Virus record (IMG/VR): IMGVR_UViG_2778261083_000005
DNA: 36,199 bases
Source of the DNA: a virus
Lineage: Duplodnaviria; Heunggongvirae; Uroviricota; Caudoviricetes
Reading direction: 5' to 3' (one strand)
Shown: piece after piece, positions 3,165 through 32,502 of the stretch
How positions within the stretch are numbered: the stretch's first letter is position 1
How the letters are laid out: each line of letters opens with the position of its first letter
Made by a program: the position numbers and the translations under genes
The notes under the pieces: model-generated
Told to the model about the DNA's origin: nothing
The model's database searches: none
What the model saw: the letters and a program-made list of their open reading frames with translations, nothing else

Positions 3165-4265
3165 TCATTCCATTTCGAAATCATCAATCTTCACTTCGAG
3201 TTCAATACTGGTTGTAAAACCGTTATCCGGGCTGACAGTATGTGTCAGAGTCGTAATGGTCCATTCCGCATCATCTATCGGCTGTTTAAAGCCACTGACT
3301 TTCACTGGCATTTCCGTGTAGAGATCTGCCCGCCCTTCCGCCAGTTGTAGCGAGAATGACGCAACGCCGCGTTGCAGGCGTTCCCACTGCATTTTTGCCG
3401 CTCGTTCGGCGTTGCTCCGGTTGGCATAAGTGCGATTAAGTACCAGCACGTTTTCATCCGTCCCCACCAGGTAATCGCCCTGCTTCGCTTCCGGCTCTTT
3501 CTTCTGCTTCTTAGTCCTGCGCTTACGCTTCACCGTAGTGCTTTCTTTCTTCGCGGGTTCGCGGGTATGCAACCAGCTGGCAATTACCCCCGTGTAAGCT
3601 CCGCGATCTGCCAGGGTAAAGCGGTGACTGTCGCCGTCCTTACGTGTGATAGTGATCACCGGTAGTGGTTTACCGCTGGCGCTTTTACCCTGTCCCTGTC
3701 GGATGAATAACAGATTGCCATTTTTCACCGACGCAATAGCACCGTACTGGCGCGCCAACCGCATCAGAAAACTGCCGTCACTCTCATTGGTCTGGTCTAT
3801 ATGTTCCACGGGTTTATCTGACAGGTCTTTACCCAATGCCATCTTCAGTTTGTGCCGCGCAGCTATTTCCTTCACCACTTCCCCAACGGTGGTCTTGTGC
3901 CACGACTTTTCACGGCGGGTATTCAGCGTTTCACGAAAATCAGCACTTCGCGCCCGGATAGTCAGGCGATCCGGTGCGCCAGTGTGTTCAATCTCGTCCA
4001 CCGTGAATGCCCCTTTCGGGAAAAGCGGCTGCCCCTTCCAGCCCAGCGCCAGCGTAATAACCGCACCACGACGCGGCAGCACGATTTTTCCATCGGCGTC
4101 GTCCAGTTCCAGATCAAGCTGGTCTGCTTCAAAGCCCCGGTTATCCGTCAGCGTCAGACTCATCAGGCGGTTGTCCAGCACTGTGGTGATATCCTTGCCT
4201 TCAATACTGATGCTGAATGCCGGAGTTTTGTTGCCTTTGTTAAGCAGTTCAGAGCTGAAATTCAC
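3165..4265 (-). CDS. D: Tail protein gpD
   Basis: 366 aa; conserved GKDIT...LTLTDNRGFEADQLDLELDDADG block matching P2 gpD; GTG start overlapping the U stop (GTGA). Confidence 0.85.
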   Translation of the reverse strand: MNFSSELLNKGNKTPAFSISIEGKDITTVLDNRLMSLTLTDNRGFEADQLDLELDDADGKIVLPRRGAVITLALGWKGQPLFPKGAFTVDEIEHTGAPDRLTIRARSADFRETLNTRREKSWHKTTVGEVVKEIAARHKLKMALGKDLSDKPVEHIDQTNESDGSFLMRLARQYGAIASVKNGNLLFIRQGQGKSASGKPLPVITITRKDGDSHRFTLADRGAYTGVIASWLHTREPAKKESTTVKRKRRTKKQKKEPEAKQGDYLVGTDENVLVLNRTYANRSNAERAAKMQWERLQRGVASFSLQLAEGRADLYTEMPVKVSGFKQPIDDAEWTITTLTHTVSPDNGFTTSIELEVKIDDFEME

Positions 4266-4747
4266 GACAGCAGCCCTCCCACCGTTTTACTGATATCGCT
4301 TAATGCAGACGTTGCAGTATCCTGCAGATTATTCAGCTGCGCACTGAGATCACCGAACATATCGGACAGGGATTCATCCACCCGTTTGAGCGACAGGGTG
4401 AACTCAATCCGGCGCGGCATACCATCGCGGAAAAACTCCGTTTTAGTCTGATTCAGTCCCTCAATCACATACATGCCATAAATCGTGCCGCTGCCTTCAA
4501 TCAGGGGCCATGCTTTCCCCTGTTCTGCCATCTGCTCCAGTGCCAGCAACGACAGCCTGCCGCCTGTTATCTCCGGCATAAGAACACCAGAAAGCGTCAG
4601 CATGTCGTTGTCCGGTCCCAGAAACTGCGTGGACGGACGACGATTTACCCGACTGTTTGCCGCATATCGCCAGCTGCGTTGATACTGCAGCTCCTGATAC
4701 GGTACGGTGCGCAGCATAAACACGTACAATCCCAGCACCATCATCAT
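4262..4747 (-). CDS. U: Tail protein gpU
   Basis: 161 aa; ATG at 4745-4747 overlaps the T stop (ATGA); position and size as P2 gpU. Confidence 0.85.
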   Translation of the reverse strand: MMMVLGLYVFMLRTVPYQELQYQRSWRYAANSRVNRRPSTQFLGPDNDMLTLSGVLMPEITGGRLSLLALEQMAEQGKAWPLIEGSGTIYGMYVIEGLNQTKTEFFRDGMPRRIEFTLSLKRVDESLSDMFGDLSAQLNNLQDTATSALSDISKTVGGLLS

Positions 4748-7700
4748 GCGTCGTATCCCCCCTGATCGCTGTAGTTACTCCTGGCCTTTGCCTTCAGTCT
4801 GCGTTCACGTTCATCAAGCTGGCGTGCCACCTCCCGCGCAATATCCTGCGCACTTTGTCCTGGCTGCGTCTGGATGATGATCTGCGTCGGTGCCTCAATC
4901 CGGTGAACGGGCGGCACAGCAGCTGCGCGACTCACCATCGCTTCGCCGCCTTTCGCGGGAAGTGCCAAAGGGTGCAACGGTGGAAGCTCTGCTGGCGCGG
5001 CAGCAACACCCATCATTCCGGCAACAACCGCAGCCAGTGCAGCTGTATTTCTCCGGCTGGTCACGTTTGCCGGACCGTTAACAATTTCAGGCCCGTTTTC
5101 ACCGACAATGCCGAACTGCCCGCGCGGGATATACCCGCCGCTGTCATACATCCCCGCAAAGCCATATCCCCATGACGGAAAACCACCCGATGGCATCATC
5201 ACTTTACCGTCTGCATTCACCGTCGCAGGTTGCTGACGCGTCACGCTTTCCGGCAGTTTCGCTTTTGCAGCCTCTTTACTGACAATGCCGAGTTTCTCCA
5301 GCAACCAGGAAACGCCGGATTTCAGCGAGTCCAGTGGATGCATGACCATATTCAGCCCTTCCGCCAGTGCCTCCCCGAATCGTCGCCCCATTGCCGCTGC
5401 ACTCTGCAGTTCGGCAGAGGTCGACTTAACAGGCATCAGCAGGTCAGTAAACCAGCCCCACAGCGCCTGCACTTTGTCTCCAATCCACTGGAACACAGGC
5501 TTAAGTGGTTCGAATGCGGCACTGATGGGACCAGCCGCTGCTTTGAATCCTTCCACCACGCCACCGAGAAATGCGGTGATGGGTTGCCAGTATTTCCAGA
5601 CAACCAGCGCCACGCCTGCCAGTGTAGTAACCACAAGACCTATCGGACTGAGCAGAGCACCTAACAGACCAGATATGGCATACAGGGCCACGCGCAGCAT
5701 CGCCAGCGGACCGGATGCCAGCACACGAAGCACCGCGCCTGTGGCAGTCAGCCCGCCGCGTAGTGCTGCCAGAGGATTCATAAACATCACAGCAACAGCA
5801 CGTAAACCGGATAATCCAGACCGCAATAGTGCAACCGGCGCACCTGCTACAGTTTTCAGGACATTCCCCGTCAGTGATGCCGTGCGACGCAAAGACGACA
5901 ACGGCGCAGTAAGTAAACCCGCTGCGTTGCCCGATGAAGCAAGCCCGCGTCGCAGCAGTGCCAGTGGTGCGCCAGCCAGCCAGGACAACGCGCTGCTGGT
6001 TCGAGTTACTGCTGCCGTAACGGAAGGTAACGTTTTGATACCCAGCACAGAGAATCCCAGACGGATCACTGCCAGCGGCCCCAGCACTGCAGCCAGCGCC
6101 ACCGCTAAGGTGCCGAGGCCTACGGTAACCGCAGCCACAACAGCCGCTACTTTCATCAGTGTGCCTGTCAGTTCCGGGTTAGCTTCCACCCAGCGGCGCG
6201 ACGCTCCCGTGACGCTTTTCACCATGTACAGAATATCCATCAGCGGCTGGCGCAGCGTTTCGCCCAGGCTGCTGAAGGTGTTCTGCGCTCCGGTTTTGAC
6301 CAGCAACCACTGCGCAGAAAGTGAGTCCTTGTTAATGTCGGATTCTTTCTGCATGGAGCCGAGCGCATCATTGCCCGCTGTCAGCTTTAACTGGCGCTGC
6401 AGTTCCGGCAGGTTGTTTGCCAGTTTCGCTGCGTCATCGCCAAACTCTTTACCAAACAACATGGTCATGGCAGACAGGCGCTTATCCTGCGGCAGAGCAT
6501 TCACCTTCTCCAGCACGCGCTGGATGGTTCCCATCGCATCCTTCGTCATCTGCTTTTCAATCAATTCAGGATTGAGTTTCAGCAGATTCATCCCTTCAAA
6601 GAAGCTCTTGCTTTGCATGGTGGCAATGGACAATTCACGCACCATCGCGTTTGCTGCACTGGCTGCAACCTCCGGCGCAGCGCCCAGTGTCAGGAAGGTG
6701 GAACCCAGCGCCGCCGCTTTACGGTAATCCAAACGATCAGCCACACCGCCCAGGCGTTGCATGACATCAATGATGTCTGCCCCTTTCGACATGGCGTTAT
6801 CATCCAGATAGTTCAGCGCATCACCGAGCTGTTCAATATTGCGGGTAGGGATTTTGTAGAGCTGGGCGATTTTCCCCAGACTTTCTGACAGTTCATCCGC
6901 TGGCAGCTCAAAGGCTGTTGCCGCCTTTGCCGCCGTGCTGGCGAAGGCCAGCAGGTCACGTTTCTGGTCTTCCCAGCTGTCGTCAGGGTTTGCGACGTTC
7001 ATGCGCGCCCCACCTTCAACCAGTGCGGCGAAGTCCACAGCACCGTTTTCCATCGGCAACTGTTCGCTGGCAGCCTTGATGGCATCCTGCATTTCATAAA
7101 AACGCGCAGTGCGGTTGCCATTATCGTCACGCAGACCATTGACCTGCTTTGCCACACCTTTCATGGCATCTTCCATGCTGGTATAGCTTTTTACTGCCGC
7201 CATCACTGGTGCGCCCATTGCCAGCCCTGCAGCCGTGGTGGTGGCTCCGGCACTTGCAATACGATCACGCACCTCCAGCGAACGGGCATAACTGGCACGC
7301 GCTGCATTCATCCTGCGCTGAGCTTCTCCCAGTCGCTTCAGCCGCGCCTCCTGTTTCGAAAGTTCCTGGTTATAACGTGATGTTTCACGGGCTAAACGAG
7401 CGGTTGCTCCCGCATCGTCTTTCGCAGAAATTCCCGCCCGGTACAGCTCTGCACGCACAAGCGCCGTTTGCTTCTGCAAATATTTTTGTTGTTCTTCCAG
7501 GCGTTGGACTGCCAGCGTTTGCCGACCTAAAGCCACAAGGTGCCGTTGTGATGGTTGTTCCATCGCCTCCAGCTCAGAGCTAAGCAAATTAGCCTTCTGT
7601 CTGGCATAGTTCAGCCTGTCGCCTAACTTCTTGTTATCGGCCTGCAGCTTGCGAAATTTTTCCAGGCTGTTACCCGCCTGATTGAGTTGCTTTAATGCGT

Positions 7701-8829: not shown

Positions 8830-10002
8830 TTACGCGCTGACCTGGCTGGCGAAATTCACCAGGTACTGATCGGTGATGCGCTGACGCAGCATCAGGTTTT
8901 CAAGTGGCGGCACTGGCGTGTAGTCGTAGTCGATGGTGAGTTTCCCGGCTTTCAGCGTGTCTTTGTCATTCACCGACTCGTCCAGCCAGCAATCACCACC
9001 AATGAGATAGCCCTGACTGACCAGGCTGCGCATTTTGGCGCGGATACCTTCGATAATGTCGCGGGCCAGCGACGGGTTCAGCGGTTTGTCCACCGCCCAC
9101 ATATGCGCTTCTGCCATCGTGTCCATCAGTACCTGCGCCGTGCGGGTGTAGTTTTCGAAGGCAAAGAGCGGGTCATCACTCAGGCAGCGGGAACCCCAGA
9201 AGCGAAAACCGTCTTTGCGGATAAGCGTGGTGACGTCGTTCTGGTTCAGCAGACCTGCATCTGTTGCCGGGTCCTGCAGATCCCAGAACACATCAGCAGA
9301 AATTCCGGTGACACCGTTCACGCCCACGTTGGACAGGCTTTTGTGCCATCCGGTCTGCTCGTCAATTTTGGCGCGCAGACCAAGCGCACGGGCGGTGGCA
9401 TATGCCGTTGCTTCGGCATTCAGCACCGTGTCCCAGCCAGTAAAGTCAGGCCAGATCAGCATCCCTTCGCGCTGGCTGAAGTTTTCACGGTAAGTGATCG
9501 CCTCCTGTACCGTCTTGCAGCCATATGCTGACAGGTAGGCAAACCCACGCAGGCTTTGCGCCACACTCAGCAACTCAGTAGCAACGGCTTTGTTATCGTG
9601 ACCTGGCACGCCGAGAATGCGCGGTTTAACGCCGAGCTGTGCCTGTGCAGATAACAGGGCTTTCATGCCAGTTTTTTTACCTTCAGCGGTCACTGCGCCG
9701 ATGATATTGGTCGTGGTTTCTTCTTCCGTTTCACCCTGCGGCACACGCACAACAACGGTCACGGGTTTTGCCTGGTCAGCGATGGCATCCAGCGAACGGG
9801 CCAGCGTGCCGGACTCACCCGCTTTACCGCTGGCAGTCAGCACATCAGTGATCAGCACGGGTTTATTAAGAGGAAACATTTTTGCATCGGCATCATCGCC
9901 CGTGCAGACCATACCCACGATGGCGGTGCTCACCGTGGTAATGGATCGGGTGCCTTCGTTGACTTCAACAACGCGCACCCCGTGGTGGTAATCCTGAGCC
10001 AT
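8830..10002 (-). CDS. FI: Contractile tail sheath protein gpFI
   Basis: 390 aa, ATG at 10000-10002; sheath-like sequence and synteny. Confidence 0.9.
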
Positions 10003-10078
10003 AGTGGCGAACCTCCTGATTGGATTAGGCTTCGCCCTATGTTGAAGTGATTGTGCCTGACAAACAGCTAAGCGCAGT

Positions 10079-10096
10079 TGTACCGTTATTCACACA
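10079..10096 (-). promoter_or_regulatory. Candidate Ogr/B activator site of late promoter PF (TGT-N12-ACA dyad)
   Basis: TGTaccgttattcacACA centred ~85 nt upstream of the FI ATG. Confidence 0.45.
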
Positions 10097-10144
10097 AAAT
10101 GACGGTATTTGTCTACTTGCAGGGATAATCAAAATAATGCTGAT

Positions 10145-10420
10145 TCAGGGAGATTCATTACTCTTATTTGCCGGAAATTTTCTATAAATTGTGGAAACAC
10201 CCACATCAAAAATCAGTGCAATACGCTGTCTTGATTCTCCGGCCTCGAGTAAGCGTCCAATCTGTGCCCACTGTTCGATGGTCAACTTAGGACGGCGTCC
10301 ACCTACTCTGCCTTTGGCGCGAGCTGCAGCAAGCCCCGCCCTGGTACGTTCAACTATCAGTTCGCGTTCCATTTCAGCCAGGGCACCCATGACATGAAAA
10401 AAGAAACGGCCCATTGGAGT
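10145..10420 (-). pseudogene. 5'-truncated serine DNA invertase (Gin/Pin/Hin family), C-terminal HTH half only
   Basis: ORF MGRFFFHVMGALAEMERELIVERTRAGLAAARAKGRVGGRRPKLT... matches the C-terminal ~90 aa of Gin/Pin-type invertases; the N-terminal catalytic-serine domain is absent and upstream sequence is unrelated AT-rich DNA. Confidence 0.75.
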
Positions 10421-10574
10421 ACATAGCCTATTAGCATTAGCTCTCCTTTTGTTACCTTGATAAATTTCACTTGTAATGTATATTTATTGGCACCGAAACG
10501 AAGTTAAAACTTAAAAACATTTATCGAACATTTATGTAATAATAACCTTCATAGCATCTATAAGGAAAATAAAA

Positions 10575-11447
10575 ATGGAACAGAGAAAACTATATGCTTA
10601 CTTAAATTTAAACAATCCAATTGTTGCCTGGGAGGTTGCAATAGGAAGAATTGAATCAATCTGTTATAAAAGTGAGTTTGGAGTATCTATTTGGTTCTAC
10701 AATCTAGTAAGAAAATACTTATCAGATAATCACAATGAAAAATTACAAAATGAGTTAGCTCTTGAAAAGGTACGCTCAGACAATTTCAGAGATAAAGTTT
10801 CCCGCCTAACCGGAATATATCTATTCAAAACAAAAGAAATGGCTGAAATAGCAATTGACCGTTGGGGTTTAAATCAAAACTATAAAAACACTATTGCAGA
10901 AATTGATTTTCATGGTTTGAACTTTACAGAGGTGGACTCAGAGTGGATCACTGATTATCTCGGCTCTCCGCTTGAGCAAAATGCGCCCTGGATGCACAAC
11001 TATTGGTCTGGAGTAACTCGCGGGGAAAATCCATTAACCGAAGTTTTGGCCAGTGGCATTGGATATATCAACGATAAAAAAATCAGAAGCATGGCTATCA
11101 AAAAACTATATGAAAAATGGGCTACTTCATCTTTGTTATTTAATGCAGCGATTGCCGGTTTTTCTACTGGAGAAATGGATCAGATATGTCGTGTCAAACC
11201 AGCGATACTACGTGAAGATGATGGGACCCTATCTGGAGAAATTTTTATTGACATGAAAGAATTCAGTCAAAATCAGACAAAAATAGTAGCCGCTTTAAAG
11301 AAAATGTATGACAACGGATATGAGCCTCCTATTGTTGTACCGAATGACCAAAATGCTGCCTTTGCATTACCGGACCTTAAAGATATGTTTTTTAGTACTA
11401 AAAACGAAGTAACTAAAAACCTGTTCAACTTATTACACGCTAGTTAA
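10575..11447 (+). CDS. Hypothetical protein, 290 aa, AT-rich cargo gene at the Z/fun hotspot position
   Basis: Clean ORF with AGGA SD 8 nt upstream of ATG at 10575; opposite strand to the flanking tail operon; markedly AT-rich by eye; followed by a hairpin; no family recognised. Confidence 0.7.
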   Translation: MEQRKLYAYLNLNNPIVAWEVAIGRIESICYKSEFGVSIWFYNLVRKYLSDNHNEKLQNELALEKVRSDNFRDKVSRLTGIYLFKTKEMAEIAIDRWGLNQNYKNTIAEIDFHGLNFTEVDSEWITDYLGSPLEQNAPWMHNYWSGVTRGENPLTEVLASGIGYINDKKIRSMAIKKLYEKWATSSLLFNAAIAGFSTGEMDQICRVKPAILREDDGTLSGEIFIDMKEFSQNQTKIVAALKKMYDNGYEPPIVVPNDQNAAFALPDLKDMFFSTKNEVTKNLFNLLHAS

Positions 11448-11454
11448 CTGCGAA

Positions 11455-11477
11455 CCACCATTTATATAAAATGGTGG
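11455..11477 (+). terminator. Candidate terminator hairpin after the 290-aa gene
   Basis: ccaccattt(11455-11463) / aaatggtgg(11469-11477) inverted repeat followed by a moderately T-rich tract. Confidence 0.45.
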
Positions 11478-11569
11478 CATCTATCTTACTTTTAATAAAA
11501 ACTTATTAGTTTAATTTATATGAGATTGTGGTTGCTACCGAAGCAGAGAAACAACTGCGAATAGACTAG

Positions 11570-11719
11570 GCTAACGAGTTTATAAACAGTAAGCAATGGT
11601 CTGATAAAGCAGCTATTTATCGCCTGAAAGGTGGCGAACTGGAACAATATAATTCGTGGGTGAGTTATCTGGATGCACTAGAACTGGTCGATACACCCCG
11701 TGCTCCAGATATTGAATGA
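11570..11719 (+). pseudogene. 3' remnant of an inverted alternative tail-fibre assembly (tfa-like) gene
   Basis: Open frame ...SDKAAIYRLKGGELEQYNSWVSYLDALELVDTPRAPDIE* ending at TGA 11717-11719, with no start codon; C-terminus resembles Tfa/gpG tails (compare gpG here ...VLDYIDAVTTTDTSTAPDVIWPELSEA); converges on the gpG stop. Confidence 0.45.
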
Positions 11720-11720
11720 C

Positions 11721-12323
11721 CTACGCCTCCGACAGTTCAGGCCAGATGACATCCGGCGCAGTGCTGGTATCCGTTGTCGTCACCGCATCGATGTAATCCA
11801 GCACAGTGTTAAGTCGGGTGGTCTCTGCCTGCATCAGCTTCCGCCCGGCCTGCAATTTCAACTGAATCAGACTAATGGAAGCCATTGCAGCATCAATCAG
11901 TGACTGACGCTGTGCTTCTGCTGCGTCTACTGCGGCGCTATGCTGTGCCTCGGTATCCGTCACCCATTTCTCACCATCCCATTTATCGTATGGCGTTAAC
12001 GGGGCGATAGTGGTTGTATTTTCAGGATAATTACCCGGCACCGTGATTTCTTTTGCTTCTCCTGTTTCGGTGCTATAGATAATTTCACCGCGATGGTCTG
12101 GCATATATTCCCATGAGTTTAAATCTACTGAACGGCAGATTGCATAACCAGCCTTATATGTGCCAGGAGCATCTAAACAGGAATATGCCGGGATACCGAC
12201 ACCAACGGCAAGATATTCATTTGAAGTGGAAATATATTCCCGTGTTTCTCCATCATAGTTATAGACAGTAATATTCCCCGCCTTCGTGGCAATAAGCTCG
12301 CTATTTAATACAGCGTTATCCAT
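11721..12323 (-). CDS. G: Tail fibre assembly protein gpG
   Basis: 200 aa; ATG at 12321-12323 overlaps the H stop (TAATG); Tfa-like C-terminus. Confidence 0.8.
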   Translation of the reverse strand: MDNAVLNSELIATKAGNITVYNYDGETREYISTSNEYLAVGVGIPAYSCLDAPGTYKAGYAICRSVDLNSWEYMPDHRGEIIYSTETGEAKEITVPGNYPENTTTIAPLTPYDKWDGEKWVTDTEAQHSAAVDAAEAQRQSLIDAAMASISLIQLKLQAGRKLMQAETTRLNTVLDYIDAVTTTDTSTAPDVIWPELSEA

Positions 12324-13852
12324 TATGCAGCCCTCACGATAAAGTTAAATGCAATATTTCGCGGACGGGTTTCGCTTCCACCTGTGTTACCAATACTCCC
12401 TCGTGTATGTAGCGTTGGTGATGGAATCAGAGTCCCTCCGACATCAGCAGCATCAAGCCCCCGGCCTTGCGTGTATGCTCTTCTGAAGATTGTCGCCAGT
12501 TCCCATTCCTCTTTTGAATCATACCCATCGTTGGCAACAACAATATGGCGATGTTTTTCCAGCATCCCAGTCTGAATGCTCAATAAAGCACGTCCAGCAT
12601 CAACGCCTCGTCCGTCATCCCAGCCACGAATAAACTCACCACGGAGATCAGGTAGTTTCCCTGATGGATATGCTGTAGCAAGACGGGGATATTTAACCTT
12701 ATCAAAGGCAGCGCCATTGCATTTCAACCAGCCTGTCGGCAGAGTGGCTGAAGGCCACGGAACTGGTACTCCTACAGGTAATGCAGAACCTTCTCCCAAA
12801 CCAAGGTATGCGAGAAGACCAGCAACATCCTTTCCACTCAAATTAGTCAGCGTATTGTCCAGCGGTTGTTTACCTGCCAGTGCATTAAGCATTGTCGTGG
12901 CAAAGTTCGGGTCATTCCCCAGCGCCGCCGCCAGTTCGTTCAGTGTATCCAGTGCCGCAGGTGCAGAACCCACCATTGCCGCAATCGCCGATTTCACAAA
13001 TGCCGTGGTGGCAATCTGTGTATTGTTGACCGACTGTGCCGCAGTCGGTGCGGTTGGCGTTCCGGTGAGTGCCGGACTCGACAGCGGCGCTTTCAGTGCC
13101 AGCGCATTGTTAATGGTGGTACTGAATTTCGGGTCATTGTTTATGGCTGCGGCAATTTCTTTCAGCGTGTCCAGCGTGGCTGGCGCACCATTAATAAGAG
13201 CCGTCAGTGCCGCCTGAACAAACGCGGTGGTCGCAACCTGCGTGGTATTATTCCCCGCCGCTGGCGTTGGCGCTTTGGGTGTCCCGGTAAACGTAGGACT
13301 TTCTTTGGGTGCATACTGTGAATGCGGGTCCGGTGCTGCAAGATGTTTTGCCATCTGATCATCCACGTACACCTTCAGCTCCAGTACCTTATCATCCACA
13401 TACTTGCGGGTTGCCAGCACGACGGCAGGGTCGATTTTCAGGGTGATATAGTCCGTGCTGCTGGTAATCAACACCATGCGCACGGTCTGGGTGCGCCCGC
13501 TGCCTTCAGCCAGTTGCGGCTTATAGCTTTCCGGGCAGTTGCCCACGGCAATCAATGCCCCGGATTCATCAAACAGGCCCACTTCACGTATCCACCAACC
13601 GCCCTCGTTTTCAGGGATCACCTGTTCAGCAATAATCTGGCTGCTGTTTTGCGGGTCGATATAGAGCATATTCAGCGCAGCCCGGCGTTTCTCATTTACC
13701 AGTGCCGTCTGCTTTGCGTCCGGCGTTGGTAATGTTCCGCCGCCATCGCCGACCGCCATATGGGTAATTTTTAACGGCACACCGAGCGCGGCGGCGCTGG
13801 CAAGTTTCGCCGCGCCAATATCCGTCAGCAGGGTATAAAATTTTGTGCTCAT
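12323..13852 (-). CDS. H: Tail fibre protein gpH
   Basis: 509 aa; conserved P2 H-like N-terminus (MSTKFYTLLTDIGAAKLA...), Ala/Thr-rich repeats, variable C-terminus. Confidence 0.85.
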   Translation of the reverse strand: MSTKFYTLLTDIGAAKLASAAALGVPLKITHMAVGDGGGTLPTPDAKQTALVNEKRRAALNMLYIDPQNSSQIIAEQVIPENEGGWWIREVGLFDESGALIAVGNCPESYKPQLAEGSGRTQTVRMVLITSSTDYITLKIDPAVVLATRKYVDDKVLELKVYVDDQMAKHLAAPDPHSQYAPKESPTFTGTPKAPTPAAGNNTTQVATTAFVQAALTALINGAPATLDTLKEIAAAINNDPKFSTTINNALALKAPLSSPALTGTPTAPTAAQSVNNTQIATTAFVKSAIAAMVGSAPAALDTLNELAAALGNDPNFATTMLNALAGKQPLDNTLTNLSGKDVAGLLAYLGLGEGSALPVGVPVPWPSATLPTGWLKCNGAAFDKVKYPRLATAYPSGKLPDLRGEFIRGWDDGRGVDAGRALLSIQTGMLEKHRHIVVANDGYDSKEEWELATIFRRAYTQGRGLDAADVGGTLIPSPTLHTRGSIGNTGGSETRPRNIAFNFIVRAA

Positions 13853-14454
13853 GGATTCACTCTCATTGTGTCAATAACATGGACCGCCCCGCCTTCATGC
13901 GCGGTGCCGCCAGAAATAATTGTTTCGTTGATATACGGATAGATCGTGATTTCTTCACCAAGATAGCTGGCGGCCCCTACCCAGTGCGGGCCACTGGTTT
14001 GCAGATTGATGGACATGCCGATCATGTGACGGCTACATGGTTTGGCATCGCTTATCAGCCGCTCAAGTTCCAGATAGGTATCTTCAGTGATGCCCTGGTC
14101 CTGCACGCCGATGTCCAGGCGAAACGTGCCCGGTGTTTCTCCAGTCTGCCACCACTCAATAATGCGTATCAGGAAGCCGAACGGCTCCACCACCCGCCGC
14201 ACGGCACTGGTGGTTCCTTTATGCTGATGAATATAAAAAGCATCCTTCACCACCTGGCGCTTGACGCTTTCTGTCCAGCCCTCGTCCCAGCGATCCACAG
14301 AGAACGCCCAGGCGAGATAAGGCAGGAAACTGATCGGACAGGTTGCCGGATTCCACAAGTCACGCAGCGGCACCTGCAGATCAGAAATCCCGCTACAGGT
14401 CTGCGCCAGTCGGCGCTCCAGTGAAGTTGAACCCGGTGGCAGCAGACTATTCAT
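13849..14454 (-). CDS. I: Baseplate protein gpI
   Basis: 201 aa; ATG at 14452-14454; synteny between J and H. Confidence 0.8.
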   Translation of the reverse strand: MNSLLPPGSTSLERRLAQTCSGISDLQVPLRDLWNPATCPISFLPYLAWAFSVDRWDEGWTESVKRQVVKDAFYIHQHKGTTSAVRRVVEPFGFLIRIIEWWQTGETPGTFRLDIGVQDQGITEDTYLELERLISDAKPCSRHMIGMSINLQTSGPHWVGAASYLGEEITIYPYINETIISGGTAHEGGAVHVIDTMRVNP

Positions 14455-25103: not shown

Positions 25104-25802
25104 TTATTTGTTTCTTCTTTGTTCACGCCTTGTCTTGGCTTCGATAAGGCGTTGAGGTTCAGTGTAAAGCCGTTCTAAAAAAAGATAGGTAAAATCTTCA
25201 AGATCCTCAGCAGCAGCTTTATCCAAAATACCTTCATGCGCTCCATCATTTCCGTCATCTTTAACGCATTCAGCTAGTTCCCTTAAAGCTTCAGGCAGTA
25301 GATGATTATCAAATAACCACTCCATTCTCAACCCTAGGCTTCTCCTTATTTTTTGCGCAGGCCCTTGCTCCCCATCAGGAAGAAGTCCTTTTGTGGCATA
25401 ATCAAGGCAAAGCCTAAACATGGTTGCTGCTGCATTATAACAACCTATAGCCAAACATTTCGCCCCTTCCTCATATGCACTATTGATATGCTCAGGTAAG
25501 AACTCTGGTGGCTCCTCTACTGCTAAGTCTGCCGGTGATATAGGCCTAACAACCTCTGCAACTTCCTTTAAGCCGAATATTCCACTTTCCCAATTATAGC
25601 TATCTAAAGTTTTATTTTTCGTTAAAGGTCTGCAAAGAAACATTGTCGTTTTATGACACTCTCGGCAAACACAATAGACCTCGTACTCGTATGTTTTACC
25701 CCCGCCCAATGCATTGTAAACCCTAGTGCAATTCAGCCCATTAACATCAAACGCTATTTTTTGTGATCCACATCGTGGACAGTCATCCACTAACATAACC
25801 AT
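25104..25802 (-). CDS. Zinc-ribbon protein with C-terminal DUF4145-like (predicted HEPN-type) domain; candidate abortive-infection/defence protein
   Basis: 232 aa; strong GGGAGGAG SD upstream of ATG at 25800-25802; N-terminal CPRC...CVCRECH zinc ribbon; C-terminal ...ALRELAECVKDDGNDGAHEG... resembling the R...GN.gAH motif of DUF4145; convergent with Q across an 8-bp gap. Confidence 0.7.
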   Translation of the reverse strand: MVMLVDDCPRCGSQKIAFDVNGLNCTRVYNALGGGKTYEYEVYCVCRECHKTTMFLCRPLTKNKTLDSYNWESGIFGLKEVAEVVRPISPADLAVEEPPEFLPEHINSAYEEGAKCLAIGCYNAAATMFRLCLDYATKGLLPDGEQGPAQKIRRSLGLRMEWLFDNHLLPEALRELAECVKDDGNDGAHEGILDKAAAEDLEDFTYLFLERLYTEPQRLIEAKTRREQRRNK

Positions 25803-25912
25803 GTCAATTACTCCTCCCTATGAAAAAAATGAGTTGAAAAATTGAATATTCACGACTTAAAAAGCTAGCCTATTTAACACCATAATTTCATTAATTCAAC
25901 CATGAGCGCGCG

Positions 25913-25931
25913 CTCGTATCCCCGCCACGCC
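25913..25931 (-). other. Candidate cos site (cohesive-end sequence)
   Basis: Minus-strand GGCGTGGCGGGGATACGAG matches the GGCG(A/T)GGCGGGGA core of P2/186 cohesive ends as I recall them (13 of 19 to 186); adjacent 12-bp palindrome gagcgcgcgctc at 25904-25915. Confidence 0.45.
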
Positions 25932-26104
25932 TGCCCGCTTTATGTAGCGGTTTTCATGCAGGCGCATGATCTACGCAAAATCCCACCAGTTCTGGCGTGC
26001 CTTAGCAAAAACGATCCGCAAACGATCATGCGATCTCATGCGGCATAGTCATGCACTTACGGGGGAAGTGAAATCCCGTAACCGAATGACCGCTTGAAAA
26101 ACAA

Positions 26105-26151
26105 AACTCTCGTTTTTATAAAGCACAAAGTCCGCTTTGAGCGAAGCGGAC
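26105..26151 (-). terminator. Candidate intrinsic terminator downstream of the KAP NTPase gene
   Basis: Inverted repeat gtccgctt(26130-26137)/aagcggac(26144-26151); on the minus strand it is followed by TTTGTGCTTTATAAAAAC. Confidence 0.4.
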
Positions 26152-26216
26152 GTTAATAATTTTACTGACTATCCCTAGTACTTCTAATAATATTGCCTAT
26201 GTTAATCAACAAAAAG

Positions 26217-28109
26217 TTAATCAGTTCCCTCAGTAAAGAATTTGATTGCGCTAGTTAGTACATAGTCAATAAAAAACTTTACGTGAAAAACCTGAAAGGA
26301 GTTATTGGCTGCGTTTTGAGTGAAATCTACAGCTATCTCTTTTAGGTTAATCAACCAGTTGTATTCTTCGGTCAGTCTGGTTCTAGCATCCCCATCAGAA
26401 TAACGATTCCGCAAGCTAAATGCCAGTTTCCTCATGAGGACTGGGTCAAGTTTCCTATAGCTTTCAATGAAAACTTCAGGAGGAACCAAGTGTAAAAAAG
26501 GCACGTTATGAAGATTTAACTGCCTATTATTAGAATGACTCAATTCAGATACGAACGATAAGTTTCCCCTTTGCAACTCATCGCTGAACTGCAACGCAAA
26601 TTCCGGAATTGATTCATCAAACCGTTTCTTCTTCGCTATCTCAATATGCTCAATAATGAGTTTGAATTCATCGCTATCCCTGTCAAGAAAACCAAAGCCA
26701 CGCCATGCCCTTAATTCGTTATAATGCGTTTGCGCATATTCCTTATGTATATCTTCAGCTCTAAGTCTATTATAATAATTATTTATATTCTGTTTTGTCT
26801 CATTTATGAGATCATGAACATCATCTGTTGTTAGACCTTCTTTCGCCATGTCCAGCAAAATACTCGCGGTCATCAGGAGTTCACCTAAGGAAGTGATCTT
26901 ACCTGAAAATAGATTATCCTTGGCAATGGCGTACTGCTCATTAAGCATAGTTTCATTAAGTTCTCGATAGTTCCACAAATACTCCCATGCTTGGGCATCG
27001 GTGCTTCTAAAAAATCGCGTAATATCCAACTGAGCGAGAAGTTCACTCGTTACCTTTCCATCACAGATTAGCTCCCTCCAGTACGCACCATCCAGTAACT
27101 TCTCGGTTAATACAGGAGATGAATATTTCTCGGCGATCATGTCATACTTAGTTTTGGTACGCTCTTTACCTAAAAACATACCATAATTAACATTGCTGAT
27201 TGAATCGAAATCCTCGTAGTTAAGGTTCCCTCCCCGGTACTCTATCGAGAAAATTAACAACTGCTGGAAAAATACCCTCATAAAATCGTCGTTGCTGACA
27301 TATTTATTTCCCAAAAGGGAAATGATGCGTTGTACATCAAGAAAGAACTGCCTCAAGTGTCTTAGATTATTATATTTCGCCGACACATAGATGTCTTCTA
27401 TGGCCTGCATATCTTCTTTAAATATATTAGCAACGTGTAAACTGCTAATTACGCCCAAAAAAACATTACAAGCACTATGTAAATCTGACGTTACTTCAAA
27501 TGTTTTACCAACAAGCTTTTCTTTTGTTCTCATATATTCGCTGCTAGATTTCTCATCATCATTATTTATTCGCTTTTCTCTATTGATTATTTCTTCTTCA
27601 TTGGCAACCAAGATCGCTTTGTATCCGTTTACTTCTACAAAGTGGTTTATATATCCAAATAAAATTGGTAAATCTATACCAGCTCTCTCGATATCATCAA
27701 AGACCAGCACAAAACCATCTGGTTTTCTACTAAAATCGTTAAGATTAATGGTGGGAACATTGGTATTGACATCAACGTCAGATTTATTATCGCCATTGAG
27801 ATCGATCTTGAAAGTAGCCTTAAGCGTATTTTTTAGTACATTTGCACCAAAGATAAGGGCTTTGTTTGATAGGACAGGATGAAGTTGACGATAGAACTCA
27901 TCTTCAATCTGCTTAATAGAGTTGACGCCATACAAACTCACTTTTAGAAATTTAAACTCTGAATTCTTCTGCTTATATTCTTCAAGAACTTGTTCAATGA
28001 ACCAAGTTTTACCTGATCCCCAAGCACCTTTAAGCATAATGGCGTATTGAGGTTCAGTTGTAAGGCTAAGGTAATATTCTATATAGTCTTTGATGTACGT
28101 ATTGTTCAT
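26217..28109 (-). CDS. KAP-family P-loop NTPase (PifA-like); candidate phage-exclusion protein
   Basis: ATG at 28107-28109 preferred (ORF-track start at 28160 is TTG); Walker A GAWGSGKT and Walker B-like VLVFDDIER in the N-terminal third; long helical C-terminal region; AT-rich; between tum/DinI module and cos. Confidence 0.75.
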   Translation of the reverse strand: MNNTYIKDYIEYYLSLTTEPQYAIMLKGAWGSGKTWFIEQVLEEYKQKNSEFKFLKVSLYGVNSIKQIEDEFYRQLHPVLSNKALIFGANVLKNTLKATFKIDLNGDNKSDVDVNTNVPTINLNDFSRKPDGFVLVFDDIERAGIDLPILFGYINHFVEVNGYKAILVANEEEIINREKRINNDDEKSSSEYMRTKEKLVGKTFEVTSDLHSACNVFLGVISSLHVANIFKEDMQAIEDIYVSAKYNNLRHLRQFFLDVQRIISLLGNKYVSNDDFMRVFFQQLLIFSIEYRGGNLNYEDFDSISNVNYGMFLGKERTKTKYDMIAEKYSSPVLTEKLLDGAYWRELICDGKVTSELLAQLDITRFFRSTDAQAWEYLWNYRELNETMLNEQYAIAKDNLFSGKITSLGELLMTASILLDMAKEGLTTDDVHDLINETKQNINNYYNRLRAEDIHKEYAQTHYNELRAWRGFGFLDRDSDEFKLIIEHIEIAKKKRFDESIPEFALQFSDELQRGNLSFVSELSHSNNRQLNLHNVPFLHLVPPEVFIESYRKLDPVLMRKLAFSLRNRYSDGDARTRLTEEYNWLINLKEIAVDFTQNAANNSFQVFHVKFFIDYVLTSAIKFFTEGTD

Positions 28110-28423
28110 TTTTAGTCCATTTTGATAAAATACATAAACATAGATGGTAAGTAGAGCCAAAGGCCAACTATGGAAAATTCAATCGGTAGTGTACATTGTA
28201 AGGTTATTATTAGTAAATTTTATAGAAATGCCCATAATCTTACAAAATTCAGATTATCCGTTGCGAATTAGTCTGCCATTCGTTAATTAACAAAAGTTAG
28301 CAGAAGAAACGTTTGCATCTTGCACAAAGCAGACGATCATTTATCAAAATGACCTTACACCTTATTTCACTCGTTGCCCAAACTAGCCCCCATCAGAATG
28401 AATCCTCCTGGGGGCAACGTTTC

Positions 28424-29009: not shown

Positions 29010-31424
29010 TTAATACAGATCCCGCCACTTATCATCTTCCTGCAAACGCTGGTTCCGATAGAAGATACGCAGGCCTGCTCCTGACGGAATACTGCCACCG
29101 CGAAGGAGTAAATCGACCTCTTTCTCGCTGCCATCAAATCCTCTGGACTTCAGTTCATAGACGAGCTGCTGTCGCTGATGATCTGTAATTCGCTGTTTGT
29201 AGTCTCTACGCCGTTTCGGTTTCACCAGGCGTAACCTTGCAGCCAGTTCCCGGCGCTCCTTTTTGTTCATACTGTGCAGGTAATCGTGCAACTCCTTGTC
29301 ATCCATGCGGGTAAAGTCCGTTCTGGGGTCCCCATCAGCTGATTTATCTTTCTCCTGTTGGTTCAAATTTTCAGCAAGGGGACAGTTATTGCCACGAGTC
29401 CAAGGGGCGCAAGCGCCCTGGTCGGCTGCCGCCTCCTGAACGTCAACGGCTTTACGAACCATTTTCCACTTCACTGCATGAGTGCAGATCTTGCCCTCTG
29501 CAATGGGTGACCAGATGCCATAAATACGAATGCCGTGATCGCCATAGGCGGTCGGCTCTTCGTTGATTTCATAAGCGGTTCTGATGAGGTGATATTTACG
29601 GGGAACCAGTACGCCGCCCTGCTTCATGATGTAGGTGGCAAAACAACCAGCATCAGCAGCAGCCAGAATGGCATCAAGACGCGGGTTATCCAGTACCGGC
29701 GCACCTGCTTTTTTGTCACCCTGTTGCCTTGCCGCCTGACCAGCCAGCAAGCGAAGTTCACGGTAAGCCTGACGCCCCGGAATACCAAAGAAGCGGAATT
29801 GCTGAACACGATGCAGAGACGCCCAGGCATTCACGTATTCAGCGTTATCACGCAGAGATTTACCCGTTTCCTTGCTGATCTCGCCAGCCAGACCACGACC
29901 GTCAATGTTCTTACTGATATATTTCGCGATGTAGCTTGTCGGCGTTCCTTTGCGCGGGTTAATCAACTCAGACTTAAAGCGCGGCCCAGTGTTATTGCCC
30001 AGCTCCTCGCGGTCTTCACGGATGGCAAACTTACGCAGTAATGCAGTGATGGCACGGCGGTCTTTTTTGCGCATGAAACACAACAGGTGCCAGTGAACTG
30101 TGCCATCATGATGCGGCTCAGCCACCCGCACGCCATACCAGCGCAACCCGGCTTTGTGCATCGCCTTACGAAATGCAGCAAACATGCCGACCAGATAATC
30201 GCTGCTTTGTCTTACCGTCGCGTTTGTCCAGGTCGGGTTTGGTCTGCCGTTATTTAGCGTGGAATGGAAACGCGACGGACAGGTGATAGTGTAGAAAACG
30301 GCGCAGTCACCGCGCATTTCCGCGATAAGCTCCAGACCTTTAACACAGGCCATCATCTCATTGCGGCGATGCGCAGGGTTGCTGCTGCTGGCGTTTACCA
30401 CATCCTCCATGTCCAGCGTGTCGCCGTCTTCGTTCACCAGTTCATGAGAACGGAAAAACTCCAGCGACTTACGGCGCTGCTCACGTTTATGCATCACGGC
30501 TTCATAGCTGACATAAGGAGATGCTTTTTTGCTGACCAGGCAAACAGCGCGCAACTGCTCTTCCCGCCATTCGCAACGCATCTTCCATAATTTCCGATAC
30601 CACCAGTCGGCGCACAACATACGCGCCAGCGAACCCGGAATGAGTTCATAGGGCACGGGTTTACGGCGGTTTCTTTTCCGACGGAGTTGCTCAAACGCAG
30701 GTGGGATGACATCCAGACGCAGGGTTTCCGCTGCCACCTTTTCCCATGTCTTGCGGATTTCTTCTGGCTTAACGTCATCGGTGGCATACAAATCACCACA
30801 AGCTGCATCAAGGCACATACTCATATGCGCAGCTACCAGGGTGGACAGGCGTTTCACCTGATCCTGACTCATTTCAGGCAGGATCAGCAGGCCGTCCAGC
30901 CCTTCATGGCTTGCCATAAAGCGAAAAGATGCAGATAGCTGACTGTCGCGTACATGCTCCAGTCGTTCCAGACATGGCTTAATCGTCTCACGTAAATAGC
31001 GGGAATAAGCCTTTGGCCTGCCCAGGCTGCTGAAGTATTCAATACGTTGCATCAGCGGCTTGCTGATATGGGAAGGCTGGGCGTTGACGTCCGCCAGAAT
31101 GACCATGTCTGAATTAAAACGCTGCTGCTCATGCGCCAGCTTTGCCCGGCTAATGAGCTTATCCTGCTCCATTTCGCGCTGGACAGGATCACGTGATTCA
31201 TTAAAGAAATAACGCTCCCAGACCTGATCACTCACTGCCTCGCGGCGCAACTGTTCCTGCTCGTTATCGGCAGCGTACAGAGTGATCAGGTTTGAAAGCG
31301 TAGAAACCGGCGCAACTTCCGCCGGGTCCAGATAAGGGTTAATGGCCTTTTTCGGGCTGTTCCATGAGAATGCTGCGGCAGCCTCGTTAAAGCCGCAGCA
31401 GTTGTTCATATCGGCATGACTCAT
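29010..31424 (-). CDS. A: Replication initiation protein gpA (rolling-circle nickase)
   Basis: 804 aa; conserved [15 protein letters not shown] and [12 protein letters not shown] motifs shared with P2 gpA; ATG overlaps the dam stop. Confidence 0.9.
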
Positions 31425-32278
31425 GCACGTACTCCGTACACGGCAGAACTATCCACGCCACGCGAATAATCAAATCCCACCCAGCAGCGCGGCCCGGAAA
31501 CAGCAATGATTTCTGTTGCTGATTTACCCTCGCCAGCTGCCACACCGATGCTGCGTTTTGCCTTGATGTAGTGGTGAGTAAAATTGCGATACAGCGAACG
31601 GATCAGGGATGTGTCACTGTTAGAAACAATGACCGGATGTCCTTCTGATGACCGATGTTCAAGAACAGATGCCAGGTGATACTGGTCATCTTCAGTGAAG
31701 CCGTCAGTGTGATAGCCGGAAAACGTACCGTCATACGGCGGATCGCAATACACCACATCCCCCGCCTTCAACATCGCCAGCGTTTCATCAAAGCTGGCGC
31801 AGATAAACGTTGCTCGCTGGGCCTTTTCTGCAAATGCGCGAATTTCTTTTTCAGGGAAATACGGATTTTTATAATTACCGTAGGGAATGTTGAAATGCCC
31901 GCTCTTGTTATAGCGACATAAACCACGGTAACCGTGACGATTGAGATACAGGAAATATACCGCTTTCATGAAATCAGTAATTTCAGTGGAGTAATTAAAC
32001 TCCTGCCTTATGTTGTAATAAGCCACCTCCCTGTTTGCGATCTCAAATAAAACTCTGGCGCGAGATATAAACGATTCACAATCAGCGGCAACCTTTTTAT
32101 AGAGGTTGATTAAATCAGGATTAATATCCGCAACCAGATAGCTGGGGTAATCCGTCTCCATCATCACAGCACAGGAACCCGCGAAAGGTTCAACCAGTCG
32201 CGGGCCAGCAGGAAGGTGTTTTTTCAGTTCGGACATAATGGCGGTTTTATTTCCCGCCCATTTCAGGATGGTGCTCAT
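31421..32278 (-). CDS. dam: DNA N6-adenine methyltransferase (Dam family)
   Basis: 285 aa from ATG at 32276-32278 ([11 protein letters not shown]...); FAGSCAV AdoMet motif and DPPY catalytic motif ([10 protein letters not shown]). Confidence 0.85.
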
Positions 32279-32502
32279 ACAGCACCTCCGTTGTAATGTT
32301 TGCCTTTCAGCTCTGCGATTTCCTGGCAGGTAATGCAAAGCTGCACTCCCGGAATGGCGCGGCGTCGTGCTGGCGGAATTGGCGCTTCACATTCAATACA
32401 AAGCACGCGAGACACGCCCGGTGTTTTGGCACGGGCAGCACGAATATGGCGCTGGCGTTCTTCTTCAACGCGCTGCTGTACGAGATCCATTGCATCAGCC
32501 AT
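32275..32502 (-). CDS. TraR/DksA-family C4 zinc-finger protein
   Basis: 75 aa; CIECEAPIP...CITCQ four-cysteine motif; ATG overlaps the upstream stop. Confidence 0.7.
   Translation of the reverse strand: MADAMDLVQQRVEEERQRHIRAARAKTPGVSRVLCIECEAPIPPARRRAIPGVQLCITCQEIAELKGKHYNGGAV

Follow-up and report, generated by a model that had tools for sequence, protein, structure and literature searches.

A Din-family invertase remnant, very probably part of a dead tail-fibre inversion switch, beside an intact cargo gene in a 186/P2-like prophage

Gin, Cin and Pin belong to the Din family of Fis-dependent serine invertases, which switch alternative tail-fibre tips. The locus described here raises the question of what an 89-aa ORF resembling only one half of such an enzyme represents, and whether the tail-fibre genes next to it can still be switched. 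It lies in a 36,199-nucleotide stretch of viral DNA (hereafter, the window; Table 1) in which the host genes ybjM and ybjL (288-2620) precede a 186/P2-like prophage that looks complete, with genes including those for gpD, the tape measure, tube and sheath (FI) proteins, the tail fibre (H), baseplate, capsid, terminase, gpA, Dam, CII, CI and the integrase. The ORF is located between the sheath gene and the tail-fibre assembly gene, in a region where the GC content falls from ~0.55 to 0.28-0.40 across ~10400-11600. The observations presented below indicate that the locus very probably holds an inactivated Din-family serine invertase gene of this prophage, part of a dead tail-fibre switch that was killed by two deletions flanking a cargo gene.

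The prophage has another P2-type variable locus, beside the portal gene Q (25104-28160), with two cargo genes on the minus strand. One of these encodes a 647-aa KAP-family P-loop NTPase matching the PADLOC candidate system PDC-S49 (E 2e-160), and the other a 232-aa DUF4145 protein with a weak match to PD-T7-4 (E 1.2e-6); the two genes probably form a defence cassette. A D12-class N6-adenine DNA methyltransferase (Dam-like, Pfam E 1.2e-76) is encoded at 31421-32338, adjoining replication gene A.

Table 1. Features of the sheath/tail-fibre locus in the window (positions on the 36,199-nucleotide stretch).
Feature	Position	Strand	Basis or remark
Sheath FI gene	8830-10002	-	
89-aa ORF, residues 100-188 of a 188-aa Din-family serine invertase	10145..10414	-	Pfam, PHROG, Gin alignment
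Invertase start codon and codons 1-7 (MLIGYVL)	10417..10437	-	alignment to intact relatives
AT-rich divergent intergenic region, invertase start to cargo start	10438..10574		
Shine-Dalgarno AAGGAG of the former invertase gene	10443..10448	-	reverse-complement read
290-aa cargo (moron) gene, intact	10575..11447	+	
Terminator-like hairpin CCACCATTTATATAAAATGGTGG just after the cargo gene	11455..11477	+	conserved in C4, L004, L009, L005
Second deletion junction	11519..11522		cargo-lineage intergenic DNA left, mid-tfa' right
C-terminal remnant of tfa'/U' (alternative assembly gene)	11522..11719	+	alignment; ORF part 11570..11719
Tail-fibre assembly gene tfa (P2 G / Mu U equivalent), intact, 200 aa	11721..12323	-	
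Tail-fibre gene H, intact, 509 aa	12323..13852	-	one variable C-terminus, Sv = 12323-12790
Crossover site, Din-type, 26 bp, TTCTCCCAAACCAAGGTATGCGAGAA	12791-12816	+	inside H, constant/variable boundary

The 89-aa ORF comprises the end of helix E, the arm and the HTH_7 DNA-binding domain. The Pfam Resolvase profile matches it only over the last 36 positions (109-144 of 145, E 2.9e-10), and HTH_7 matches over positions 1-44 of 45 (E 1.3e-15), that is, the C-terminal DNA-binding domain is present. The ORF also matches PHROG 125 'DNA invertase' (E 3.9e-37) and the DNA-binding domain of Hin (E 2.3e-9), and aligns with residues 100-184 of the 193 residues of Mu Gin (E 1.9e-34). Compared with residues 100-188 of the intact 188-aa invertase of E. 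coli UMNK88, it shows a single amino acid difference (T146I); the two alleles differ by 8 synonymous changes and 1 non-synonymous change. The preliminary description had identified the ORF as the C-terminal DNA-binding half of a Gin/Pin/Hin-type invertase, and these matches bear this out: it is not a small HTH protein unrelated to invertases. A tblastn search of the 36-kb window with the UMNK88 invertase recovers residues 98-188 at 10420..10148, so that the pseudogene remnant reaches 10420, past the end of the ORF; the same search detects no other invertase, intact or partial, in the 36 kb. At the protein level, residues 1-99 are gone, and with them the Ser9 nucleophile motif YVRVSTNDQ and the catalytic domain of the Din family; MLIGYVRVSTN(D/E)Q is present in the invertases of all intact relatives.

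The 5' end of the gene has, in part, been retained. Upstream of 10420, the minus strand reads AAGGAG-N5-ATG CTA ATA GGC TAT GTA CTC | CA ATG GGC, with the ATG of the invertase at 10435-10437 and codons 1-7 fused in a shifted frame to codon 99 at its second base. Relative to the 188-codon gene of UMNK88, 274 nt are missing inside the window gene. Codon 7 is CTC (Leu) in the window and Arg in all five intact invertases compared. The catalytic N-terminal domain had been thought to be replaced by unrelated AT-rich DNA from ~10420 on; this has to be revised on both counts, because 10417/10418 is an internal deletion junction beyond which codons 1-7, the start codon and the Shine-Dalgarno sequence follow, and because the 290-aa gene in the AT-rich DNA is a regular neighbour of intact invertases (see below). 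Judging from its 5' context, the 89-aa ORF is most likely an unexpressed pseudogene fragment, since it starts at the internal Met100 without a Shine-Dalgarno sequence, and the reading frame of the remnant 5' end crosses this ATG out of frame. The same arrangement, at 99.3% identity, is present in strain ET350, where PGAP calls both intervals, invertase and tfa', pseudogenes ('incomplete; missing N-terminus').

Two kinds of intact relatives clarify the layout from which this locus derives. In UMNK88 (L002), the invertase gene (3246-3812) is followed by a crossover site (3868-3894), an Sv' fragment with a gp53-like annotation, tfa', an oppositely oriented tfa and H, with a second, inverted site (5758-5784) inside H. 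Of 5426 complete E. coli genomes, 987 have this invertase-plus-site type. Collinearity between the window and UMNK88 is limited to 9801-10417 (98% identity) and 11536-13900 (91%); in place of UMNK88 3519-4503, the window has 1118 bp of dissimilar, AT-rich DNA. The second kind of relatives encodes homologues of the window cargo protein (60-89% identity) directly beside, and divergent from, intact 183-192-aa invertases: L004, L005, L006-8 (Citrobacter sedlakii) and L009, tail modules of four other P2-like lineages. L004, the sole contig with cargo and intact invertase that extends past the cargo gene, shows the order invertase, cargo, crossover site (2521-2546), Gp53-like Sv', tfa', tfa and H with a second site (4190-4215). 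Thus, both UMNK88 and L004 carry the complete switch. The window and L004 are homologous from the ATG of the invertase across the cargo gene as far as L004 position 2511, 10 bp before the crossover site. This end point and the gene order of L004 imply that the cargo gene is a resident neighbour outside the segment, between the invertase and the proximal site. A phase-variable location of the cargo gene inside the invertible segment was considered and rejected, the L004 crossover site being downstream of the cargo and directly before Sv'. The nearest intact states are ~84% identical to the window across the cargo region and ~73% across the 3' half of the invertase. In the window, the intergenic region between the invertase and cargo starts is 66-68% identical to those of L004 and L009 and unrelated (32%) to the UMNK88 interval, which lacks a cargo gene.

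Several assemblies with an intact invertase and cargo (L005, L006-L008, L009) break 90-190 bp after the cargo gene, and L009 ends exactly in the crossover-site core (6948-6960; ...TCTACAAAACCTT). Such breaks would be what mixed orientations of an actively inverting segment do to short-read assembly.

At the tail-fibre end of the window locus, the remains of a switch are equally apparent. Only one 26-bp crossover site with up to 3 mismatches is present in the 36 kb (1 match vs 0.00 expected in shuffles), and no second or degenerate site was detected in the window, including 10420-11720, with the 26-mer at 3 mismatches or the 12-bp core at 1 mismatch. The interval 10420..11720, where residual sites might have been sought according to the preliminary description, therefore contains none, the single site being the one in H. 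Inverted-repeat matches within 10000-14000 were discarded as candidate crossover sites because they are short and chance-like. The window thus has one site in place of the two inverted sites characteristic of the Din family, and the partner site seen in UMNK88 and L004 falls in the interval deleted from the window. The ORF at 11570..11719(+) matches positions 79-125 of 131 of Caudo_TAP (E 2.1e-6), and by alignment the tfa' homology actually starts at ~11522, in frame with the annotated remnant, and covers the C-terminal third of tfa'. A TAG interrupts this frame at 11567-11569, where strain C4 has TGG and UMNK88 has CAG, and a TGA is found at 11717-11719, where both have TGG. The cargo-lineage DNA ends at ~11519, ~10 bp short of the crossover-site position of L004. 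Accordingly, in place of two alternative tips with their chaperones, the window has an intact Sv and tfa, no Sv', and a tfa' that is reduced and interrupted by two stops. A genuine tfa' fragment and the existence of intact relatives with the full switch agree with the earlier view of the locus as a relic of an invertible segment resembling Mu G or e14 P.

The decay can be followed through several related loci. The window state is shared by four complete E. coli genomes and the draft genome of Escherichia sp. MOD1-EC7003. Strain C4 (L001), two other complete genomes and the metagenomic contig L010 share both the cargo gene and the right junction with the window. The invertase lesion of C4 is smaller: codons 1-17 are kept, TAA stands at codon 18, an in-frame deletion has removed codons 19-72 and the rest of the gene is present. 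The Arg7Leu change (CTC) is common to C4 and the window. The window lacks 112 bp more than C4, between the imperfect repeats GGGTAC and GAGTAC, and since this deletion spans the C4 junction, there were at least two steps on the invertase side. The tfa' remnants of C4 (228 bp) and the window (150 bp) might appear to have different deletion endpoints; they share the same junction, and the TGG-to-TAG mutation explains the difference in length. L011 has decayed independently and retains only invertase residues 133-185 (857-1015), with a cargo homologue (1183-2073, 77% identity) between the sheath gene and tfa and no alternative fibre segment. Thus, at least two independent decayed lineages keep the cargo gene intact, in addition to the nested step in the window lineage. 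The H gene of C4 is annotated as two incomplete pseudogene pieces (5527-7032), so the C4 prophage has decayed further than that of the window, in which H is intact.

Comparison of the window with ET350 (L003) shows a 2.45-kb block (10394-12844) with only 2 differences, spanning the invertase junction, cargo, tfa', tfa and the Sv part of H, whereas the flanking DNA differs by 3-6%, both on the left (invertase 3' remnant and tail genes) and on the right (constant part of H). In particular, the invertase remnant differs by 4% from that of ET350 next to 2.45 kb that are nearly identical. From this distribution of differences, the block was evidently exchanged by recombination. Its right end is within ~30 bp of the residual crossover site.

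Under the reading that we prefer and consider very probable, the ancestral order would have been sheath, invertase, the divergent AT-rich 290-aa cargo gene, a crossover site, Sv', tfa', tfa, Sv and a second site in H, as relatives still show. A deletion within the invertase gene would have fused the Shine-Dalgarno sequence, the ATG and codons 1-7 out of frame to codon 99, with the loss of the Ser9 catalytic domain. Another deletion, of ~0.6 kb and extending from ~10 bp before the proximal crossover site to the middle of tfa', would have removed this site, Sv' and the 5' part of tfa'. Both deletions would have left the cargo gene untouched, and later point decay would account for the Arg7-to-Leu change and for the TAG and TGA stops in tfa'. 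In gin, hin and cin, the coding sequence contains the Fis-dependent enhancer in its 5' region; by analogy, the enhancer is presumed to be gone from the window gene together with codons 8-98. A segment that has lost its recombinase, one of its two sites and its alternative tip cannot invert, even with an invertase provided in trans, and the intact H and tfa genes leave the phage with a single, fixed fibre type.

How the cargo came to lie next to this particular invertase is a separate issue. Similarity to the intact lineages switches at both junctions: the 3' half of the invertase and tfa'/tfa/H are UMNK88-like, whereas the 5' end of the invertase, the intergenic region and the cargo gene are L004/L009-like. 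In the route that we favour, with somewhat better than even confidence, homologous exchange yielded an intact hybrid switch that was subsequently hit by the deletions; the exchange sites would be the nearly invariant first 17 invertase codons and a position at or near the crossover site. No direct ancestor combining a UMNK88-type intact invertase with the window cargo at >90% identity was found among the 5426 E. coli genomes or the species-representative genomes, so we infer the order in which the intact hybrid came first and the deletions followed.

The failure to find an intact intermediate in these genomes is also what would be expected if a cargo-bearing P2-like donor had replaced a patch from mid-invertase to mid-tfa' by a single illegitimate event, creating both junctions at once. 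Such an event, which would concern the older, C4-type state, is posited to have brought in a fragment running from the 5' end of the donor invertase through the cargo to just before the donor crossover site, and it would likewise account for the lineage change at both junctions (UMNK88-like, 98% and 91%, outside; L004/L009-like, 84%, inside) and for the intergenic region being closer to L004/L009 than to UMNK88. However, it requires two simultaneous non-homologous joins, the left lineage switch could equally have arisen by homologous recombination within codons 1-17 and the right one at the 26-bp site, and L011 shows that a switch can decay around the cargo independently. Moreover, the left junction of the window is itself secondary, resulting from the 112-bp deletion around the C4 junction, and hence at least two steps are needed in any case. 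We therefore consider a single patch replacement fairly unlikely. By either route, the sequence around the junction indicates that the donor DNA carried the 5' end of the invertase and that the 10417/10418 junction is a secondary deletion.

Two further possibilities concern the present state of the locus rather than its origin, and both appear much less probable than patch replacement. The 89-aa fragment might have been domesticated as an HTH protein that binds the residual site in H, or sites of a co-resident prophage, and acts as a regulator or inversion inhibitor: the ORF runs uninterrupted from Met100 as far as the native stop, contains a complete HTH_7 domain and differs from the intact allele mostly by synonymous changes, and the isolated C-terminal peptide of Hin reportedly binds hix half-sites. 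Against this stand the internal start codon without a Shine-Dalgarno sequence, crossed out of frame by the upstream invertase frame, and the PGAP pseudogene call. The 8:1 synonymous bias is attributable to divergence among functional alleles before the truncation and to recombinational import rather than to selection on the fragment, and the 4% divergence of the remnant from ET350 beside a nearly identical block also argues against domestication. Furthermore, no fixed truncated form is conserved, the C4 remnant being different and L011 retaining residues 133-185 only. Domestication is accordingly very improbable. Din-family invertases (Gin, Cin, Pin, Hin) cross-complement, and one good crossover site is left, so that inversion of the segment by an enzyme acting in trans, such as e14 Pin, might be envisaged; but two inverted sites are needed in cis, the 36 kb contain one, and with Sv' gone and tfa' truncated and interrupted by stops there would be nothing to express. 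We regard this as scarcely conceivable, and retain the reading of a switch killed by deletions on both sides of the cargo.

The cargo gene is found in only 7 of the 5426 complete E. coli genomes, always at the sheath/tail-fibre locus. It is preceded by a promoter-like TTGATA-16-TATATT at 10457-10484(+), which is a consensus match only. The protein has no match in Pfam or NCBIfam and none to any family in the PADLOC-DB v2 defence models at E up to 1, and in PHROGs it matches two families of unknown function only. A search of PDB profiles yields a marginal match to 2AUA only. The Pfam DUF2441 profile (PF10386) does not match the window protein at E up to 10 and thus falls short of the gathering score; the homologues P0009 and P0020 reach 15.2 and 13.3 bits with a cut-off of 25, and the precomputed database annotation lists PF10386.17 (DUF2441) for many cargo homologues. 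An AlphaFold model built from the homologue alignment (pLDDT 94.3, pTM 0.90) retrieves, in Foldseek searches of PDB and BFVD, 2AUA and two uncharacterised phage proteins, with no functional match beyond these. As modelled, the cargo protein shares the DUF2441 fold with BC2332 (PDB 2AUA). Pfam places DUF2441 (PF10386) in the ADP-ribosyltransferase (ART) clan (PMC7955679), and this listing is all that we found in the literature on DUF2441/PF10386.

Homologues of the cargo protein, 104 in total with 29-97% identity, occur across Proteobacteria and beyond, and 17 residues are invariant in an alignment of 69 sequences, R25, S38, E60, E64, R67, R77, D121, S122 and E156 being among them. Several of the more distant ones (46-49% identity) are encoded by solitary genes, namely in Vibrio cincinnatiensis (L014, 7001-7861) in an IS-rich region with ParE/Phd, in Pantoea sp. 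BL1 (L015, 7001-7870) near a CdiI-like gene, a Ser/Thr kinase gene, P2 portal/Ogr remnants and AAA_15/21 genes, and in Yersinia enterocolitica (L012, 7001-7873) at the edge of a prophage tail-fibre module. In the betaproteobacterium Candidimonas humi (L020), a partial serine recombinase (~5299-5637; 38% identity to invertase residues 64-175) is encoded ~440 bp downstream of a distant cargo homologue, which may be another recombinase-cargo association outside P2-like phages.

The cargo protein behaves like the product of a mobile accessory gene, for which a role in defence or an NAD-dependent role can be hypothesized. Specifically, we tentatively propose, as a possibility that falls short of even likelihood, that the DUF2441-fold cargo is an unrecognised single-gene accessory of P2-like phages, which would function in anti-phage defence or in the modification of the host or competitors, possibly through NAD-dependent chemistry of the ART superfamily, and which would habitually reside beside the invertase and be kept by selection as the switch decays. 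Small serine recombinases have been linked to defence genes (PMC13552941), and by analogy this linkage fits a defence function of the cargo.

What the locus shows is a well-known system decaying in the way that is usual for prophages. Pin/Gin-type invertases are commonly found in a decayed state next to prophage tail-fibre genes, and both remnants had already been annotated as pseudogenes by PGAP in near-identical genomes. The interest of the locus is that it offers a clean stepwise example of an inversion switch dying, by nested deletions and then nonsense mutations, with the fibre locked in one host-range state, and that the decay spares a rare, self-contained DUF2441-fold gene that is a recurrent neighbour of invertases. 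The intact cargo, its recurrent invertase neighbourhood and the shared 2.45-kb block with a locked tip make it a reasonable and cheap candidate for a phage-defence/moron screen.

Among known systems, the cargo gene resembles P2 morons in having its own promoter-like site and terminator hairpin and in its location between the tail-fibre and sheath genes. In P2, the G-FI junction is the position of the non-essential Z/fun; the cargo gene is not P2 Z/fun. Like the moron genes of P2-like phages there and at the Q-side old/tin hotspot (Rousset et al., 2022; PMC9122126), it is low-GC, self-contained, rare and patchily distributed; neither that study nor the 2026 NAR follow-up discusses invertases or tail-fibre loci at G-FI.

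With respect to the switch itself, the intact relatives share the layout of Mu Gin/G, P1 Cin/C and e14 Pin/P, with an invertase beside a segment bounded by inverted 26-bp sites. The sites have the Mu/P1/e14-like form TTCTC..AAACC..GGTTT..GAGAA, and within the segment lie Sv/U and Sv'/U', which share a constant fibre N-terminus. Compared with these switches, the window lacks the catalytic domain, one site, Sv' and half of tfa' and is non-functional, and its sub-lineage has the 290-aa cargo between the invertase and the proximal site, where UMNK88 has none; Mu, P1 and e14 presumably also lack a cargo gene there. [quoted passage not shown] For EPEC, experiments have shown that tail-fibre loci of P2-like prophages do invert (PMC4272514). 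Compared with these intact loci, the window is a decayed form, in which the 3' half of the invertase is still 98% identical to that of UMNK88.
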